Shown here in pieces: positions 2,511-19,766 of a stretch of DNA of 20,000 nt. Within the stretch, counting starts at the first letter, position 1. Each line of letters opens with the position of its first letter. This DNA is from an uncultured virus (IMG/VR IMGVR_UViG_3300037343_000250). Its lineage: Duplodnaviria; Heunggongvirae; Uroviricota; Caudoviricetes. The stretch is taken from the IMG/VR virus record IMGVR_UViG_3300037343_000250, positions 51,520-71,519 of that record, one strand, 5' to 3'. Both the position numbers and the translations under genes were made by a program. Below the pieces are notes generated by a model. The model was not told the origin of the DNA. It saw only the letters and a program-made list of their open reading frames with translations, and made no database searches.

Positions 2511-2600
2511 GTAGACTTTCATTAGAAGAAGAAGAGTGGTATTGTGATGATTGTCCTGTACAAGAACAATGCCCAGCTCAAAAACATTGGAGTAAATAAT

Positions 2601-3386
2601 ATGAAAAATGATCTATTTGGTGATCGTATGAAAGAGTACGAAAAGGTATATACATCAGCAAGAATTTCACAACCAGACATCTTATGTGTTAGGATAGATG
2701 GAAAGCGATTTAGTAAGTTCACCAAAGGTTTTATCAAACCCTTTGACATTAATCTTAATAGGGTTATGGTAGATACAACTATGCAAATTGCAACAGAAAC
2801 AAATGCAAAATTTGCGTATACACAGTCAGATGAGATCACTTTGATCTACTCAATGGATAACCCAGAAGCAGAATATATTTTTGGCGGCAAAGTATCTAAA
2901 ATAAACTCTATACTTGCATCTATGACTACTGCATATTTTAACGCAGAAATACTAAAAGTTGCCCCTACACAAATGGCAGGCAATGGCTATGCATTCTTTG
3001 ATTGTAGATCCTTTGCGGTCCCATCTTTAATCGAAGCTTCTAATGTAATTTTGTGGCGTGTTCAAGATGCAAAGAAAAATAGTATCTCATCGCTGTTCAG
3101 ATGGACAGCGGGGCATAAAAAAATGCAAAATTTATCTGGAAAGGATATGATTAGAGTTTTGGAGAAAGATTTTACTGTTGTATGGGATAATTTGCCCAAT
3201 GCTCAAAAATACGGGACATACATCAAACCTGTGTCCCATGATATCTGTATAACACCCAAAAAACTATATAATGGCACGAATAAAATCCAAACTGTCAAAA
3301 GAAAAAAATACGAAGAAATTGATTTGGGGTATTTCGGTGGGTATTCACTCGAAGAAAGAGTAGAACTTTTAACTAGTCATATGTGA
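2601..3386 (+). CDS. thg1: tRNA(His) guanylyltransferase Thg1-like protein (3'-5' polymerase)
   Basis: Motifs GDRMKEYE, VRIDGKRFSKFT, YTQSDEITL, FGGKVSKINS, FDCR. SD GGAG 2589-2592 favours ATG 2601. Confidence 0.92.
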   Translation: MKNDLFGDRMKEYEKVYTSARISQPDILCVRIDGKRFSKFTKGFIKPFDINLNRVMVDTTMQIATETNAKFAYTQSDEITLIYSMDNPEAEYIFGGKVSKINSILASMTTAYFNAEILKVAPTQMAGNGYAFFDCRSFAVPSLIEASNVILWRVQDAKKNSISSLFRWTAGHKKMQNLSGKDMIRVLEKDFTVVWDNLPNAQKYGTYIKPVSHDICITPKKLYNGTNKIQTVKRKKYEEIDLGYFGGYSLEERVELLTSHM

Positions 3387-11374: not shown

Positions 11375-12289
11375 ATGGGCTGTTGGAATGGAACTTGTGG
11401 ACTTACTAACTTACCAATTCACGATGGCGAGAAGATGTATGTATTTCCTGTATTAGAAAACGACTTGAGTAGCTATCGCAGTCATTGCTACAGTAGTGCA
11501 TTATACAAACCTATGCTTACACCATTCGTTTCTGTGTATAATGACTACGGCGCGGGCGAAGAATCTTCTGGCATTGCGCTAGACATTATTATGGAAAGCA
11601 TTCAAGAAAATCTAGTGGAACTCGAAATTGGCAAAAACACCTATCACGACATTGCTGTTAAAAAAGAAGGATTTACAGTAGATACATTCTTTGAAGCAGC
11701 ACACGAGGATCGGCTTTTTGTGCAAGGATATGGTAAAAAGTCAGCGGTGTATTTTACAATGGTACGCAAAGATGTAGTTGATAATATGTTTAATTCGTGG
11801 ACATTTGATATGTATATGGGCGAGGGCAAGGCGGGCAATCCTTCCGACAGCTACGAACGTAATGTAACATATGCAAAACAGAGAGAATATATCCCTGAAT
11901 TTATTGATACGATCAAATGTACCATAGAAGATGCCGATGATGAAATTTCAAAATATTTAGTAGCAAGTTCAATTAGGAATATTTCAAATAAAATACCTAT
12001 GCTAAAATATCTATGCTATTCGTTTGATAGTAGCGAACACTGGCGTCTCACTCAAATTGAACATAAACTTGTCGAATTTATTACCAAAGGTCTTATTAAT
12101 GATGCAATCGAGTTGGCAAGAATCCAACTGTTAGGAACAATGGTAAATAGAATGATGGGAAATACACGAAAAATATGGCTTCCGGTTATGCATCAAGGAA
12201 GTCAGAGTCAAAGTTACGATACATACAAGTATCTGAATGAATTAACTAGTGAAGTTATTGCGGAACGAGAAAGACTGTACGAGGAATAA
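11375..12289 (+). CDS. conserved phage hypothetical protein (304 aa)
   Basis: Long ORF; MGCWNGTCGLTNLPI N-terminus and YNDYG motif. Confidence 0.85.
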   Translation: MGCWNGTCGLTNLPIHDGEKMYVFPVLENDLSSYRSHCYSSALYKPMLTPFVSVYNDYGAGEESSGIALDIIMESIQENLVELEIGKNTYHDIAVKKEGFTVDTFFEAAHEDRLFVQGYGKKSAVYFTMVRKDVVDNMFNSWTFDMYMGEGKAGNPSDSYERNVTYAKQREYIPEFIDTIKCTIEDADDEISKYLVASSIRNISNKIPMLKYLCYSFDSSEHWRLTQIEHKLVEFITKGLINDAIELARIQLLGTMVNRMMGNTRKIWLPVMHQGSQSQSYDTYKYLNELTSEVIAERERLYEE

Positions 12290-12306
12290 ATGTGTTGACA
12301 TGTTGT

Positions 12307-12314
12307 TATAAATA
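12307..12314 (+). promoter_or_regulatory. T4-like late promoter consensus TATAAATA
   Basis: Exact TATAAATA in an intergenic gap; the upstream TTGACA (12295) has no matching -10 at N17. Confidence 0.4.
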
Positions 12315-12320
12315 GTAGTA

Positions 12321-12337
12321 GCAAAAGGAGTTTTTGC
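12321..12337 (+). promoter_or_regulatory. SD hairpin 1
   Basis: GCAAAAG-GAG-TTTTTGC before ATG 12341. Confidence 0.75.
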
Positions 12338-12340
12338 ATA

Positions 12341-12985
12341 ATGAATAATAAAATTTACGGGACGCTTCCTATTGACATGGGAAAAGTAGAATTGAACCCT
12401 GCTGAAATGATGTTTTGGATGTACTGCCCGATTAAAGCACCTAATATGACACAAACGAAAATTCCTGAAAATTTAATGCAGTATCAACCCTTAATTGCAC
12501 TGATCAAACAAGATCGAGGTAGTGAATGGAAATCCGATTATGTTTACATCACAGCAAAGACTTTGTATGTGACTCCTGAAAGTACAGGAAACAGAGCTGG
12601 GTGGCACAGTGATGGATATCTGACCAACGATATAAACTATATTTGGTCAGACACTAATCCAACAGTATTTTTTGACGACAGCAATTTACACGAATTTTCC
12701 CAAAACCACAATGACTCTATGCATGAAATGGCAGCACTATGTTCAAACCATGCAAAATATCAAGTTAGGTTTGAAAACAAACATCTGTTAAAGCTAGATC
12801 AGTATGTCCTACACAAAGTCGATACTAATATTCAAGCAGGAATGCGAACATTTGTTAAAATTAGTGTGTCTAAGAATATCTACGCACTAAAAGGAAATTC
12901 AATCAATCATAAACTTTGTATTGCCCAATATTATCAAAACAGGCAACTTGAAAGAAACTGCCCCACTGGTGCAAATAATATTTGA
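12341..12985 (+). CDS. putative 2OG-Fe(II) dioxygenase-like phage protein
   Basis: NRAGWHSDG (HxD), distal LH, and RTFVKIS, matching a jelly-roll HxD...H...R pattern. Confidence 0.65.
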   Translation: MNNKIYGTLPIDMGKVELNPAEMMFWMYCPIKAPNMTQTKIPENLMQYQPLIALIKQDRGSEWKSDYVYITAKTLYVTPESTGNRAGWHSDGYLTNDINYIWSDTNPTVFFDDSNLHEFSQNHNDSMHEMAALCSNHAKYQVRFENKHLLKLDQYVLHKVDTNIQAGMRTFVKISVSKNIYALKGNSINHKLCIAQYYQNRQLERNCPTGANNI

Positions 12986-13010
12986 CATCTTACTATTAAT
13001 TAACTATAAT
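12982..13010 (+). promoter_or_regulatory. consensus sigma70 promoter
   Basis: TTGACA-N17-TATAAT, exact consensus. Confidence 0.9.
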
Positions 13011-13015
13011 ATAAA

Positions 13016-13030
13016 GCTAAGGAGTTTAGC
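13016..13030 (+). promoter_or_regulatory. SD hairpin 2
   Basis: GCTAAG-GAG-TTTAGC before ATG 13033. Confidence 0.75.
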
Positions 13031-13032
13031 AA

Positions 13033-13395
13033 ATGAATACTATCTACAGAGTAGAAAATCCTCTAACCCAACAAGGCTTATGGTACAGAGAAGATGGGTC
13101 ATTTAATCCATTAATCAAAACACTTACAAATGCTATTGCGCGCGATTTTCCAATGGGGTTTGACCCTGCTTTTAAAGTGGACGGTCTTGATTGGATTAGT
13201 GGCTGTGATAACCTTACTGATATGCAAAATTGGTTTTCGGTGCAGGATCTTACAGAACTGCATACAAGAGGATATGATTTATTCAAATTTAAAGTTGAAA
13301 AATATCGAACTGTAAACGGACATGCAGTGTTTGCCAACGAACATGTATTGAGTAACACCAAACTTGATATGTCATTACTAAAGAAAATTTACTGA
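13033..13395 (+). CDS. hypothetical protein (120 aa) upstream of the NAD salvage genes
   Basis: Has promoter and SD; IYRVEN....GLWY N-terminus. Confidence 0.8.
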   Translation: MNTIYRVENPLTQQGLWYREDGSFNPLIKTLTNAIARDFPMGFDPAFKVDGLDWISGCDNLTDMQNWFSVQDLTELHTRGYDLFKFKVEKYRTVNGHAVFANEHVLSNTKLDMSLLKKIY

Positions 13396-13396
13396 A

Positions 13397-13413
13397 TTTA
13401 GAGGAGTTCTAAA
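13397..13413 (+). promoter_or_regulatory. SD hairpin 3
   Basis: TTTAGAG-GAG-TTCTAAA immediately before ATG 13414. Confidence 0.75.
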
Positions 13414-14448
13414 ATGATTAAACAATTTGATACACTGGTATTTTGTGGCCGATTTCAGCCATTTCATATTGGGCACCAGTCAGTTATTGACCAAGCATTA
13501 CTTAAAGCGCATGAAGTTGTGATCGTAATTGGTTCCAGCTTTCAAGCGCGTTCAACAAAAAATCCATTTACATTTTCCGAGCGGTCTGCTATGATTAGAG
13601 CAGTATACACACAAGATAATGTAAAGATAGTGGGTGTGATGGATTATCCATATGATGATAATGCTTGGGTAAGTGCGGTTCAAAGCGCGGTTGATGCTGT
13701 TAAGTTAGGGTCAAAAACTGGATTGGTAGGACACTCCAAAGACAGTAGCTCATATTACCTGAAAATCTTCCCGCAATGGAGCGATCATGTAGAAGTCGCA
13801 AACATGGGTAATATCAATGCAACTGATATCCGAAAAGCGATGTTTGAATTTGGTATATTTCGGGGAATTGCCGAATTTTATTCAGATACAATCCCAGAAG
13901 AAGTAAATTATGTAATAGATGATATTGTGCGCGAATGGTCGCATGAAAGCTGGGAATTGCTTGTGCAAGAATATGCTAAAATTAAAGCTTATAAGAATGC
14001 TTGGAAAGATGCACCCGATGTGCCACTGGTTTTTGTGACAACGGATGCTGTTATCACACAGGGCGGCTACGTGTTGCTTATCAAGCGTCGTAGGTTTCCA
14101 TTCAAGGATTGCTGGGCATTACCAGGTGGCTACTTGGCGAAGGGCGAAACGATTGTAGATAACATGATCAAAGAACTGCGCGAAGAAACCTGCGTAAAGA
14201 TTCCCGCAAAAGTGCTAAAAGGCTCTATCAAAGACGTTAAGATTTTTGATCATCCTGAACGCGATCCTCGTGGTCGCACTATCACCCATGGATTCCATGT
14301 GGATCTTGGGTTCCCTATTGAGGGCTTACCTAAAGTAAAAGGTGCTGATGACGCCAAAGAAGCTAAGTGGGTACTTTTGAGCAAAATTACCAGTGAAATG
14401 ATGGCGTTTGACCATTATGCAATCATTACATCTTTTATCAGGATTTGA
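13414..14448 (+). CDS. nadM: bifunctional NMN adenylyltransferase / Nudix ADP-ribose hydrolase
   Basis: GRFQPFHIGH (HxGH), KNPFTFSER, GHSKDSSSYYL, INATDIR; Nudix box GGYLAKGETIVDNMIKELREET; RDPRGRTIT, GADDA. Confidence 0.95.
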   Translation: MIKQFDTLVFCGRFQPFHIGHQSVIDQALLKAHEVVIVIGSSFQARSTKNPFTFSERSAMIRAVYTQDNVKIVGVMDYPYDDNAWVSAVQSAVDAVKLGSKTGLVGHSKDSSSYYLKIFPQWSDHVEVANMGNINATDIRKAMFEFGIFRGIAEFYSDTIPEEVNYVIDDIVREWSHESWELLVQEYAKIKAYKNAWKDAPDVPLVFVTTDAVITQGGYVLLIKRRRFPFKDCWALPGGYLAKGETIVDNMIKELREETCVKIPAKVLKGSIKDVKIFDHPERDPRGRTITHGFHVDLGFPIEGLPKVKGADDAKEAKWVLLSKITSEMMAFDHYAIITSFIRI

Positions 14449-14449
14449 T

Positions 14450-14575
14450 ATGACAATACCTACATGCAAACATTGGGCGATCATAACATACACAAGTGTA
14501 TTTGTGCCAAGAGACAAGCGTTCCCAGATATCTCTTGGGCACGGTTATTTCGAACACCGCGAAGAAAGTATTTGA
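14450..14575 (+). CDS. 41-aa ORF, possibly a truncated gene remnant
   Basis: MTIPTCKHWAIITYTSVFVPRDKRSQISLGHGYFEHREESI*; TGA-T-ATG junctions at both ends. Confidence 0.55.
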   Translation: MTIPTCKHWAIITYTSVFVPRDKRSQISLGHGYFEHREESI

Positions 14576-14576
14576 T

Positions 14577-14786
14577 ATGGCGCACAGATTGATTATTGAA
14601 GGCTTCAACACCAAAGCAGAGGCACAGGCGTTTGCTGATTGGTATGAAGGCGCTGGAGAGCAAGACGCTGCAAACTGGTTCGAGGCTCGAAAAGAAGAGG
14701 GCGTAATTGATGTTGATTGGATGGGAAATGTTGGTACTGTCCAAGAAGATGGAAACGATCTTATCATGACGGTGAAGCCACAATGA
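14577..14786 (+). CDS. hypothetical protein (69 aa)
   Basis: MAHRLIIEGFNTKAEAQAFADWYEGAGEQ; ATG coupled to the upstream stop. Confidence 0.75.
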   Translation: MAHRLIIEGFNTKAEAQAFADWYEGAGEQDAANWFEARKEEGVIDVDWMGNVGTVQEDGNDLIMTVKPQ

Positions 14787-15061
14787 ATATGACCTTAGTT
14801 TTGGCAGGAATAATCTTGTGGTTTGGCATTAGTTCAGCATATTTCTTATGCAACATGGGCAAGAAAAATATGAAAGAGCCTTGGTATATTTGGATATTTC
14901 TGCCGCCTGTAATTATTTCATTGCTAATATTCTTGGTACTGCCATTTTCTTTTGGATATTTTTTAGAATGGGTTTTTGAGAGTAGACTTCGTTCGCATAC
15001 AAGTGTTGTAAAAGGTGTTATTGGGAACATCAGAGACTTTATGCAGGGCTTTCTAAAATAA
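14783..15061 (+). CDS. membrane protein (92 aa, 2 TM segments)
   Basis: ATGA overlap; two hydrophobic stretches. Confidence 0.7.
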   Translation: MNMTLVLAGIILWFGISSAYFLCNMGKKNMKEPWYIWIFLPPVIISLLIFLVLPFSFGYFLEWVFESRLRSHTSVVKGVIGNIRDFMQGFLK

Positions 15062-15064
15062 TAG

Positions 15065-15093
15065 TTGACATTTGATGATATAAAATATATAGT
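15065..15093 (+). promoter_or_regulatory. sigma70-type promoter
   Basis: TTGACA-N17-TATAGT. Confidence 0.8.
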
Positions 15094-15134
15094 ATAATCT
15101 ATTACAAAATAACATAAATAAAGACGTTATAACA

Positions 15135-15151
15135 TCATAAGGAGTTTATGA
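15135..15151 (+). promoter_or_regulatory. SD hairpin 4
   Basis: TCATAAG-GAG-TTTATGA before ATG 15154. Confidence 0.75.
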
Positions 15152-15153
15152 AA

Positions 15154-16608
15154 ATGACCAATGTACTATCTCTACTAACTGCAATTATCCGAACTGATAG
15201 CTATAAATTGAGCCAGTTCTTGCAGTATCCTCCAGATACTACCCGTATCAGTTCATATATCGAATCTCGCGGCGGTGAAGAAAAAAGTGTTTTCTTCGGC
15301 TTGCAAGCATTTATCAAGCAGTATATGCTCACGCCAATCACACAAAAAGATATCAATATGGCGGAAAAGCTTGTGCTTGCACACGGGTTGCCATTCAATC
15401 GTGAGGGTTGGGAAATTATTGTCAACGAATATGACGGTATGCTACCACTTCAAATTGAAGCAGTGCCCGAAGGTACTGTTATGGAAACACGAAATGTACA
15501 GGTTCAAGTTGTCAACACTGATCCTCGACTGTTTTGGTTGACCTCTTATATCGAAACTGCGATCTTGCGCGGTATTTGGTATCCTTCTACCGTCGCGACA
15601 AAAAGCCGTAAACTGAAAAAGATTATTGCGGCTGGATTGCATAAAACAAGCGATATTCCAGTAAATGATCAAATTCAGTTCAAATTGCACGACTTTGGTG
15701 CAAGAGGCGCTAGTAGCTCAGAATCTGCAATGCTTGGTGGCATGGCACACTTGACTAACTTTATGGGCACTGATACAGTAGAAGCACTTGTGGGTGCAAT
15801 GGAATACTATAATTCAGAAGTAGTGCCTGGGTTTAGTATCCCCGCTAGTGAGCATAGTACAATTTGTGGGTGGGGAGGACCAGAAGGCGAAGTTGTTGCA
15901 TTTGAAAATATGATAGTCAAATTTGCTGGGGAAGGCAAGATTTACGCTTGTGTAAGCGACAGTTATGATATCTATGCCGCGTGTCGAGAGTTGTGGGGTG
16001 GTGTTCTGAAAGATAAAGTAATTTCATCAGGTGGAACTTTGGTAGTTCGTCCTGACTCTGGCGATCCAATGACAGTACCAATCGAAGTATTGAATATTCT
16101 TGCCGAAAAGTTTGGCTTTGCGGTAAACAGCAAAGGATATAAAGTTTTGCCTTCTTATATTCGTGTAATTCAAGGCGATGGCCTCAATGAAGAAACCCTT
16201 CCTATCCTGATTAAAAACGTGATAGATGCTGGGTTTTCACTTGACAATATAGCATTTGGTATGGGTGGCGGATTGCTACAAGCTTGGAATAGAGACACAC
16301 TTAAGTATGCAATGAAAGCAAGTGCTCGTGAGGATACCAATGGTATTTGGCATAATGTATTCAAAGACCCAATTTCAGACAAAGGCAAGACTTCTAAGAA
16401 AGGTCTTTTGGGGCTTGTGTATGACTGTGGTGTGGGTAGCTGTAGTTATAAAACAGTACCTAAGAATGTTGCAACAGAAAAAGGAAACCTGCTTCGTACA
16501 GTGTATCGCAATGGTGCTCTCTTAATTGAAGATACATTTGATGAAGTTAGAGCTCGGGCCGAACTAAAAGTTGAAGAGTATTCACCTCAGATTGTAGAAA
16601 GATATTAA
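15154..16608 (+). CDS. nadV: nicotinamide phosphoribosyltransferase (NAMPT)
   Basis: TDSYK, YIESRGG, LHDFGARG, IPASEHS, VSDSYD, RPDSGDP, FGMGGGL motifs. SD spacing favours ATG 15154 over 15148. Confidence 0.95.
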   Translation: MTNVLSLLTAIIRTDSYKLSQFLQYPPDTTRISSYIESRGGEEKSVFFGLQAFIKQYMLTPITQKDINMAEKLVLAHGLPFNREGWEIIVNEYDGMLPLQIEAVPEGTVMETRNVQVQVVNTDPRLFWLTSYIETAILRGIWYPSTVATKSRKLKKIIAAGLHKTSDIPVNDQIQFKLHDFGARGASSSESAMLGGMAHLTNFMGTDTVEALVGAMEYYNSEVVPGFSIPASEHSTICGWGGPEGEVVAFENMIVKFAGEGKIYACVSDSYDIYAACRELWGGVLKDKVISSGGTLVVRPDSGDPMTVPIEVLNILAEKFGFAVNSKGYKVLPSYIRVIQGDGLNEETLPILIKNVIDAGFSLDNIAFGMGGGLLQAWNRDTLKYAMKASAREDTNGIWHNVFKDPISDKGKTSKKGLLGLVYDCGVGSCSYKTVPKNVATEKGNLLRTVYRNGALLIEDTFDEVRARAELKVEEYSPQIVERY

Positions 16609-18551: not shown

Positions 18552-19766
18552 ATGAATTACGAATCAGCACTTGATGTAGTATTAGACAGATTACGTTTGG
18601 AGTCGCGGTATAGGACTTTCATAGATATTGAACGTATAAGAGGTAGGTATCCTACTGCATTATGGCACAAACCAAATGGGGATAAAAAAGAAATTACCGT
18701 TTGGTGTGGTAATGACTATCTTGGTATGGGGCAGCACCCAATCATTATAGATGCAATGATTACGGCATTAGATGCTACCGGAGCGGGTTCTGGGGGCACA
18801 AGAAACATTTCTGGGACAACAGTATACCATACCAGTCTTGAAAAAGAATTGGCGGAATTACATGGAACAGAATCTGCTTTGGTTTTTACATCAGCCTATA
18901 ATGCCAATGATGCCACATTATCAACCCTGTCAAAAATCTTCCAAAATCTCATAATATATTCGGACGAGCTAAATCATGCTTCTATTATAGAAGGGGTGCG
19001 GCGCAATAATACCACAAAAAGAATTTTTCGCCATAACGATGTTCAACATCTGCGTGAGTTGTTGAACAATGACGAACCTTCATTACCAAAGTTAATTGTA
19101 TTTGAATCGATATATTCTATGGATGGTGATTTTGGGCCAATCAAAGAAATTTGTGATTTGGCTGAAGAGTTTAATGCACTCACATATATAGACGAGGTTC
19201 ACGCGGTTGGTATGTATGGGCCGCGTGGTGCAGGTGTTGCGGAACGCGATGGTGTTATGCATAAATTAGATATTATAAATGGTACATTAGCCAAAGCATA
19301 TGGAGTTGCTGGTGGTTATATCGCGGCAAGCTCAAGAATGTGTGATGCTATACGGTCATACGCCCCAGGTTTTATTTTCACATCTTCCATGCCACCATCA
19401 GTTGCCGCTGGTGCAACAGCGTCAGTTAATTATTTGAAAAATGCACAACATTTGCGGGACAAACAACAATTAAATGCAAAAATACTAAAAGATAGGTTTA
19501 AGGCGATAGGACTTCCTGTAATTGATTATGGTAGCCATATCGTACCAGTTCAAGTAGGTGATCCAATCAATTGCAAAATATTATCAGACATTCTACTCGA
19601 AAAATATGGGATATACGTTCAGCCAATTAATTTTCCTACAGTACCAAGAGGAACAGAAAGATTACGCTTTACACCTTCACCTTTGCATGATACAGAACAG
19701 ATAGATATATTGGTTAATGCCATGGAAGATCTATGGGCACATTATATCATAGGCGGAACTACTTGA
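18552..19766 (+). CDS. hemA: 5-aminolevulinate synthase (Shemin pathway)
   Basis: [70 protein letters not shown] (PLP lysine), [32 protein letters not shown] before ATG 18552. Confidence 0.95.

Follow-up and report, generated by a model that had tools for sequence, protein, structure and literature searches.

Four short hairpins, each enclosing the Shine-Dalgarno (SD) sequence of a gene, are present in a 20,000-nt stretch of DNA (the window) from an uncultured Caudoviricetes virus. The hairpins are genuine and far beyond chance. All four represent one conserved cis element with covarying stems; in it the SD forms part of the loop and stem of a weak hairpin adjoining the start codon. We infer that the element acts as mRNA, as a translational operator. 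The best reading, to which we assign a probability of about 0.5 from sequence comparison, is that this operator would be bound by NadM-Nudix and provide NAD feedback on the phage anti-defence pathway NARP2.

Hairpins over Shine-Dalgarno sites in the window

The features of the region are as follows (P2 denotes the SD-bearing hairpin).
12295..12314, + strand: putative promoter-like sequence, from sequence only, with TTGACA at 12295 and TATAAATA at 12307, the latter presumably a T4-late-type promoter sequence
12321-12326/12332-12337, + strand: stem of P2 hairpin 1, 6 bp, GGAGU loop (SD), -4.5 kcal/mol
12341..12985, + strand: 214-aa protein, probable 2OG-Fe(II) oxygenase-like fold (phrog_1843; predicted fold)
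12982..13010, + strand: perfect sigma70-type promoter TTGACA-17-TATAAT (12/12), ending 5 nt upstream of hairpin 2
13016-13020/13026-13030, + strand: stem of P2 hairpin 2, 5 bp, GGAGU loop, -4.2 kcal/mol
13033..13395, + strand: 120-aa T4 Y00F-family protein (PF26820), weak ADP-ribosyltransferase (ART)-like fold
13397-13402/13408-13413, + strand: stem of P2 hairpin 3, 6 bp, GGAGU loop, -2.2 kcal/mol
13414..14448, + strand: NadM-Nudix (NMN adenylyltransferase/ADP-ribose pyrophosphatase), 2qjo match E 2.7e-75; PRK05379 models below cut-offs
15065..15093, + strand: sigma70-type promoter TTGACA-17-TATAGT (11/12 consensus)
15135-15140/15146-15151, + strand: stem of P2 hairpin 4, 6 bp, GGAGU loop, -2.9 kcal/mol
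15154..16608, + strand: NadV/Nampt nicotinamide phosphoribosyltransferase, PRK09198 585 bits (cut-off 405)

All four predicted hairpins were found at their expected positions, each enclosing GGAGT, and the ATG follows at 3, 2, 0 and 2 nt for hairpins 1 to 4, within the predicted 0 to 3 nt. The 71.5-kb contig contains 46 AGGAG sequences on both strands. Stems of six to seven pairs (including G.U) are seen at the four hairpin sites only; the remaining 42 have stems of three pairs or fewer, in agreement with the claim that other AGGAG sites lack the structure. Null tests were restricted to the 45 AGGAG sites with full flanks (hairpins, 4/45). Swapping of 3' flanks among these sites produced four hairpins in 0 of 20,000 trials (maximum three), and dinucleotide shuffles of the contig (n = 200) gave 0.11 hairpins per genome (maximum two). 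The observed four are far above the shuffled expectation. The left arm of every hairpin forms 5 to 6 bp with its own right arm, as compared with 1 to 3 bp with those of the other three. An invariant core of an A-U pair, a G.U pair and a GAG triloop had been proposed. The A-U closure stands, and the minimum-energy fold is a GGAGU pentaloop; the probability of a G.U pair closing a GAG triloop is 0.32-0.42 in the four window hairpins. At the fifth loop position of P2, 121 of 134 distinct relatives have U or C and 13 have A (the search pattern barred G there). Since this base is mostly U/C and sometimes A, the triloop is possible.

Hairpins 3 and 4 precede nadM-Nudix and nadV, phage homologues of the NARP2 pair (Nampt plus NadM-type Nmnat) with a putative anti-defence role. 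NadM-Nudix carries a basic segment after the Nudix box (about residues 256-275), also found in its solved homologue 2qjo, and has no helix-turn-helix domain. A weak match to NF050029 corresponds to the Nudix sensor domain common to NrtR. The nadV start is likely 15154; an alternative in-frame ATG at 15148 lies inside the stem of hairpin 4. The stem type of hairpin 1 is the one preceding nadM and pnuC in relatives, and that of hairpin 3 (before nadM-Nudix here) precedes nadV in relatives.

A conserved two-hairpin leader

The full leader consists of an upstream hairpin, P1 (loop mostly AHAGA), a linker, and the start-codon-adjacent P2, whose loop variants GGAGY, GGAUU and GGAAC contain the SD. 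P1 is present in most relatives, 23-34 nt away, and is gone from this phage; P2 alone is kept here and in sister lineages. The loop-to-loop spacing is 23-34 nt with a peak at 28 (76 selected leaders), and the linker is unconserved. Covariation was seen at 13 of 13 model pairs. The counts were made with the loops anchored by sequence only, on 177 distinct P1 and 134 distinct P2 leaders. P1 pair 2 is paired in 176/177 (shuffle mean 96, maximum 114) and P1 pair 3 in 163/177 (mean 75, maximum 93), P2 pair 3 in 122/134 (mean 63, maximum 76) and P2 pair 4 in 113/134 (mean 48, maximum 67), with all four Watson-Crick types represented in these pairs. In a model-aligned set of 137 leaders, composed of related sequences in an alignment fitted to the model, 87% of cells are paired versus 52% in shuffled and 36-45% in slid controls. 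The compensatory changes expected in orthologous leaders are present by both measures.

Some features of the pairing would suit an element read in DNA, as an inverted-repeat operator or by extrusion of a hairpin. Watson-Crick pairing predominates almost completely in the inner part of P2 (pairs 1-4: 497 Watson-Crick, 3 G.U and 8 A.C among 536 cells), and the strand asymmetry of G.U over A.C is modest (28:5 in P1 pairs 2-3; over A4, 66:46 in P1 and 26:18 in P2). A DNA-level role is nevertheless highly improbable. Copies within a single genome have wholly different arms, a divergence that a protein reading DNA sequence could not accommodate. The element invariably covers the SD on the sense strand, and in loci L224 and L227 it coexists with an adjacent NrtR gene.

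The leader is found upstream of nadM-Nudix and nadV separately in unrelated phages (T4-like, jumbo, Roseobacter and cyanophage) and also in alpha-, beta- and gammaproteobacteria, with pnuC and nadA as further targets. The original prediction of an RNA-level element over the SD that marks an NAD regulon is thus supported, and the regulon is broader than foreseen, including pnuC, nadA and bacteria. Of 20 pattern matches in which both stems form, 19 lie before nadM or nadV. Whole-genome scans detected the element at 2/176 SD-like starts in G006 (both nad genes), 3/184 in DSS3P8 (two of them nad genes) and 4/154 in G007 (nadM, nadV, pnuC and a CysRS-like gene). It also lies upstream of nadA-nadM in L300 and of nadM and an SPFH gene in L238. 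Loci L098-L137 (40/120) were left out of the pattern-scan analysis. The whole-genome rule missed the GAP161 nadM and nadV hairpins (U-A closure) and gave two unrelated matches among 151 starts; the element-calling rule miscalled at least one locus (L273). Genome-wide, the covariance models have low sensitivity: R1 missed G003, G007 and GAP161 and scored the P2-only window copies at E 1.1-9.9, and R2 matched 3/151 genomes, one of which (G134) was an inverted repeat without a gene behind.

Static tuning of initiation or mRNA stability, with no switch and with spread through leader duplication, fits the visible duplication and shuffling of leaders. The nadM of this phage bears the stem type of relatives' nadV, and the near-identical strain L517 has neither the oxygenase-like gene nor its hairpin. 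We regard static tuning as improbable, since it would leave unexplained the conserved P1 loop, the fixed spacing and the restriction to NAD genes among 150-180 starts per genome.

Rfam 15 covariance models, including NAD+-I and NAD+-II, gave no match in window positions 12000-15400 (E ≤ 10), in five phage loci (E ≤ 1) or in eight phage and bacterial loci (E ≤ 3). The element is not described in the literature searched. The main texts of PMC5737381, PMC11109978, PMC8632094 and PMC9503650 contain no such motif, although the supplements of PMC5737381 and PMC11109978 and automated RNA catalogues might list it. The control element is apparently previously undescribed.

Candidate binders of the leader

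The P2 stems have a median energy of -4.5 kcal/mol (166 stems), and the hairpins are too weak for repression by themselves. Thermal melting, offered earlier as an alternative, appears unlikely because the stems are at -2 to -4.5 kcal/mol. In the proposed mechanism, the unbound P2 hairpin would be weak enough for the ribosome to open, and an oligomeric protein would grip one or both loops, stabilise P2 and block 30S binding. The binder would most likely be NadM-Nudix itself, responding to its own level and probably also to occupancy of its two active sites by NAD, NMN or ADP-ribose. Ample NAD would turn down the salvage pathway (NARP2 in phages), and draining of NAD by host NADases would release it. 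A genome-encoded protein is favoured over a fixed metabolite because the P1 type is the same at nadM and nadV in 85 of 86 loci with both called, the P1 and P2 loops of phage BcepSauron are both tetraloops at nadM and nadV alike, and P2 appears to work alone in this lineage. We tentatively extend this reading as follows. NadM-Nudix (failing that, the RNA as a new riboswitch class) would sense NAD/ADP-ribose and repress translation of nadM, nadV, pnuC and nadA via paired pentaloop hairpins, a self-contained switch with which phages would restrict NAD reconstitution to times when host immune NADases fire. The literature searched contains no report of RNA binding by NadM-Nudix.

The main rival is a small riboswitch. 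The two conserved loops would jointly bind NAD, NMN, ADP-ribose or PRPP and lock the SD hairpin; ligand binding by tandem hairpins is known from guanidine-II riboswitches. The conserved loop sequences and their spacing are consistent with such a sensor, as is the occurrence across three proteobacterial classes and a cyanophage. The regulon covers salvage, uptake and de novo synthesis (nadV, nadM, pnuC, nadA), like the NAD riboswitch regulons in the available passages of PMC8632094. We nevertheless consider a riboswitch unlikely. P2-only lineages exist, and their 17-nt hairpin is probably too small for an aptamer; the linker is unconserved, and the loops change in concert by lineage. A sensor needing no protein would still function in NadM-less genomes, yet the element is missing at their nadV.

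The latter observation comes from a bacterial sample of 401 genomes of one class (one genome unscored for NadM). The element stands before both genes in 6/6 genomes with adjacent nadM-nadV and at 0/10 nadV genes of the nine NadM-less genomes; six NadVs of NadM-less genomes are 48-56% identical to the NadV of this phage, as close as element-positive ones. Complete nadV phages without NadM have the element in 0/5 cases, their NadVs being distant (27-32%). In a FastTree tree all occurrences of the element fall within a single NadM clade of 146 rows, and the 23-row outgroup has none. It appears to track one NadM-Nudix clade, a relation that is confounded by descent and has exceptions. Five NadM-only genomes and three with unlinked nadM/nadV in the 401-genome sample are without the element, so the presence of NadM is insufficient. 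Among NadM-positive phages, KVP40, Va3 and phiN3 show 3-bp stems only, and phiCbK and VspSw_1 none. The basic segment is present in 129/134 element-positive versus 6/35 element-negative NadMs; it is largely a clade trait, so the 129/134 count carries no independent weight. The segment is missing from DSS3P8 and RsoM2USA, which have the element, and is retained in L228, L447 and L287, where no element was called.

Repression by NadV (Nampt), a homodimeric phosphoribosyltransferase, could be envisaged by analogy with PyrR, a phosphoribosyltransferase-type repressor of pyr mRNA. A nadV gene lies within ~3.5 kb in 113/134 element-positive loci, and the element occurs in none of the five NadM-only genomes. 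In the sister contig L004 the nadV hairpin is kept and nadM is reduced to its last 39 codons in the locus; the nadV is 99% identical, so the nadM loss is recent or an assembly fault. The absence from all ten nadV genes of NadM-less bacteria, close homologues included, makes repression by NadV rather improbable, as does the presence of the element in G009 and G012, in which NAMPT_N was not detected. These two are MAGs and possibly incomplete. NAMPT_N was not found in the genomes of the element-bearing loci L300 and L238.

The original prediction named CsrA/RsmA, RegB and RegA. Action of such a general RNA-binding protein or nuclease on the hairpins now seems very improbable. GGA does sit in the hairpin loop, and ANGGA is found in 3/4 window sites and 96/137 aligned leaders; yet every AAGGA SD contains ANGGA, and its A and N fall in the stem, not the loop. 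The RsmA SELEX motif CANGGAYG, located in a hexaloop in the available part of 10.1101/2020.08.24.265819, occurs in 0/4 window sites and 0/137 aligned leaders. P2 has a pentaloop, the P1 loop is without GGA, and CsrA was not found in the element-positive G005 (positive control detected in 3/14; CsrA found in G001). The RegB consensus GGAGRAYARAA is absent at the four window sites. According to the accessible passages of PMC3014915, the RegB site is unstructured and structure shields from RegB, and the RegA operator is A+U-rich, includes the AUG and is without structure. Identity with the RegA operator was rejected, as the window sites are covarying hairpins. The regB and regA families were found in 0/5 records each, a search in which no positive control was detected and G000 is 35% complete.

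Known systems and the two additional genes

Bacterial NAD gene control known so far consists of DNA-binding repressors and two riboswitch classes; the element is an added conserved RNA layer in many proteobacteria and diverse large phages. The NrtR and NadR regulons comprise target genes of similar kinds. The Nudix sensor domain recurs in NrtR, and NadR is an NMN adenylyltransferase doubling as a repressor, but both act on DNA via a helix-turn-helix, absent from this NadM-Nudix. PyrR and aconitase/IRP are enzyme folds that bind leader hairpins of their own pathway according to ligand; similar behaviour is proposed here by analogy, with unrelated proteins and RNA. As in autogenous translational operators (T4 gp32, gp43 and RegA; ribosomal-protein leaders), a structured leader lies over the ribosome binding site (RBS) of the presumed binder and is repeated at co-regulated genes. 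In contrast to those, the presumed binder is an NAD enzyme and not a nucleic-acid-binding protein, and the element occurs in phages and bacteria and has no Rfam match. Like the NAD+-I (nadA) and NAD+-II (pnuC) riboswitches, the leader RNA hides the RBS of NAD genes, nadA and pnuC included, but it has two pentaloop hairpins and no internal-bulge/pseudoknot aptamer. A conserved, covarying, SD-overlapping structure in leaders of related genes, the mark of riboswitches and translational operators, is found here. The NAD+-II riboswitch is almost confined to Streptococcus in the available passages of PMC8632094, and those of PMC11109978 include a category of 'protein binding candidates'.

In the passages available of 10.1101/2024.02.11.579819, NARP2 (Nampt + Nmnat), to which the window gene pair is homologous, counters NAD-depleting defences, makes excess NAD at a PRPP cost and, as the KVP40 operon, is toxic in E. 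coli; regulation is not described in these passages. KVP40 natV has a 3-bp stem only, unlike the window hairpins. An operator bound by NadM-Nudix, if true, would explain the restraint of a costly NARP2 that, when unregulated, over-produces NAD and consumes PRPP (same passages), and would make the anti-defence module responsive to the very defence countered. The element is shorter than 55 nt, and for the candidate binder a homologue of solved structure is available (2qjo), so the question is directly testable.

A link of the two uncharacterised genes to the NAD module had also been claimed. It is only partly supported: the hairpin is shared, but it is lacking at those homologues that lie away from nad genes. 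Both genes may be passengers, which would have joined the regulon via an acquired copy of the promoter-plus-hairpin leader. The 214-aa protein gives TM 0.48-0.59 to PhyH/2OG-oxygenase clusters, under the naming bar of the tool. The model of the 120-aa ORF has a pLDDT of 88 (single-sequence fold, 42.5, unusable). Its scores against known structures are low (best Z 4.0, rmsd 3.5, 78 aligned; Foldseek E ≥ 0.28), and nearly all of the best 50 structural rows are ART-superfamily chains, as judged by titles. The hairpin also points to new candidate NAD-linked genes, such as that of the ART-like Y00F protein.

Hairpins over the SD sequences of the NAD genes

The window forms the end of a 71.5-kb virus contig (36% GC, completeness of ~35%) with T4-type core genes (gp32-like SSB, UvsX, helicase, primase, late-promoter regulator, nrdAB, td, and frd). 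The gene cluster runs in the order 214-aa oxygenase-like gene, 120-aa ORF, nadM-Nudix, two small ORFs, and nadV. Four hairpins over AGGAG Shine-Dalgarno (SD) sequences, as described in the original prediction, were confirmed in the sequence:

12321-12337, before the oxygenase-like gene
13016-13030, before the 120-aa ORF
13397-13413, before nadM-Nudix (NMN adenylyltransferase/ADP-ribose pyrophosphatase)
15135-15151, before nadV (nicotinamide phosphoribosyltransferase)

Long stems occur at only these four of the 46 AGGAG sequences in the contig. A flank-swap null reached four in 0/20,000 trials and shuffled genomes gave a mean of 0.11 hairpins each; the four hairpins are far beyond chance. Their fold energies are weak (-2.2 to -4.5 kcal/mol). 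The proposed G.U-closed GAG triloop has a probability of 0.3-0.4, and the minimum-energy form is a GGAGU pentaloop. On their own, with no binding partner, hairpins of this strength hardly delay initiation. A static effect on initiation with no switch is improbable.

The full form in relatives has an upstream hairpin P1 (loop AUAGA, ACAGA, or AGAGA), a variable linker, and P2 over the SD. The hairpin stands before nadV in 11 of the 14 IMG/VR relatives found with NadV, and a twelfth carries a GGAAU variant; most also carry it before nadM with differing stems. In a survey of 80 viral and 80 bacterial NadM loci, a P2 stem of at least 5 pairs was found before viral nadM (57/78), viral nadV (58/67), and bacterial nadM (45/80). 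Only 6/56 bacterial nadV genes passed because their P2 is usually bulged; a covariance model recovered many of the failing leaders. Bacterial carriers include Xanthomonas, Stenotrophomonas, Lysobacter, Caulobacter, Asticcacaulis, Marinobacter, Pseudoalteromonas, and Methyloversatilis. Named phage carriers include DSS3P8, RsoM2USA, RTH11, GAP161, Aeh1, CBB, and cyanophage B23. KVP40, Va3, and phiN3 have stems of 3 bp only, and no stem was found in the phiCbK and VspSw_1 leaders. Phage BcepSauron (L516, 943 and 2501) has a tetraloop variant (AAGA, AGGA) before both nadM and nadV, adjoining a divergent NadM.

With loops anchored by sequence alone, the inner pairs of P1 and P2 are conserved far beyond what column shuffles give, and all four Watson-Crick types are represented. 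Among 137 model-aligned matches, an alignment of related sequences that leans towards the model, 87% of cells are paired (against 52% after shuffling), and changes on both sides occur at every one of the 13 pairs, the compensatory pattern in orthologous leaders that the original prediction called for. The excess of G.U over A.C is modest overall and stands out only within inner P1 (28:5), so the RNA reading rests mainly on the position over the SD, the sense-strand orientation, and the free arm sequence. An element acting at the DNA level is very unlikely. This is a real, conserved element, and we put the probability that it functions as a cis-regulatory RNA at about 0.9.

Candidate regulators

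CsrA, RegB, and RegA, the factors named in the original prediction, do not fit, each by its own defining features; a general RNA-binding protein or nuclease of this kind is very unlikely. We examined 401 genomes of one class around a chosen centre (G001). The element precedes both genes in 6/6 genomes with adjacent nadM and nadV, and is absent before nadV in NadM-less genomes (0/10 genes, 9 genomes), in all 5 NadM-only genomes, and in all 3 with unlinked nadM and nadV. Five complete nadV phages without NadM also lack it. Two MAGs in which a NAMPT search found none carry the element; NadV as the binder is rather unlikely. In one isolate genome (L281) a variant is visible by eye and the covariance model gave no score. 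In a 169-row tree the element is confined to one NadM clade, which also has a basic segment after the Nudix box; shared descent confounds this association, and there are exceptions in both directions. Within a genome, the loops of the different copies vary together, the pattern expected if a protein co-evolves with them. The main rival is a small riboswitch, itself not likely. The distribution points to NadM-Nudix as the actor, and its autogenous repression through the element, a mechanism we infer, has about an even chance of being correct. PyrR, aconitase/IRP, NadR as a repressor, and guanidine-II serve as comparison systems.

The leaders gave no match in Rfam 15. The element is not described in the passages searched of PMC3014915, PMC9503650, PMC8632094 (including one supplement), 10.1101/2024.02.11.579819, and 10.1101/2020.08.24.265819, or in those of the main texts of PMC5737381 and PMC11109978. 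Within the literature and Rfam release searched, it appears undescribed.

Genes downstream of the element

An IMG/VR scan with a pattern built from these leaders and blind to the downstream gene (80/120 loci analysed) gave 86 matches. Twenty had both stems, and 19 of these precede nadM or nadV (some contigs counted twice). Whole-genome scans of SD-like starts found 2/176 positives in G006, 3/184 in DSS3P8, and 4/154 in G007: six nadM/nadV, one pnuC, one CysRS-like gene upstream of pnuC, and one that looks spurious. The GAP161 scan gave two unrelated hits and the rule missed its nad genes. The CysRS-like gene with the hairpin (L317 in G007, 15025-15954) encodes a 306-aa cysteinyl-tRNA synthetase catalytic domain. 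Elsewhere the element precedes pnuC (G008, L366, L370, L371) and nadA, the latter in one phage (L430) and one bacterium (L300). It is also found before an SPFH gene, a radical SAM gene, and several small ORFs adjoining nad genes. Two bacteria and a phage (L300 2587, L281 2500, L430 1182) have a compact nadA (~305 aa) linked to nadM-Nudix, so certain phages may encode de novo NAD synthesis under this element.

The predicted NAD link of the two uncharacterised genes held in part. In another phage lineage the oxygenase-like gene (67% identity) has the full two-hairpin element and there, too, lies before nadM; the element is absent (0/9) at more remote homologues that are not near nad genes. The 120-aa protein belongs to the T4 Y00F family. 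Its model (pLDDT 88) aligns weakly but consistently with ADP-ribosyltransferase folds (best Z 4.0), a plausible lead that may tie it to NAD; 0/6 distant homologues have the element. In the near-identical strain L517 (2930-3000) the oxygenase-like gene is missing, and its promoter runs directly into the next leader. The 214-aa gene behaves like a cassette flanked by repeated promoter-hairpin leaders, and both genes are probably gained and lost along with duplicated leaders. The sister contig L004 (4392-4508) keeps the hairpin before a 99% identical nadV; at this locus it lacks both genes and retains only the last 39 codons of nadM.

Other features of the phage

The phage encodes a 5-aminolevulinate synthase (18552-19766; TIGR01821, 651 bits, cut-off 339), which hints at an alphaproteobacterial host; this gene is also near nad genes in G007 and L424. 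A tRNA-His guanylyltransferase (Thg1) gene lies at 2544-3386, and the window has a putative T4-type late-promoter box. L001 (1530-9181) has 10 clustered tRNA genes, of which four are called as tRNA-Met. In L003 (5464-9183) and L002 (2618-4555), a homing endonuclease gene splits nrdA, possibly as an intron, and another follows the uvsX-like gene.
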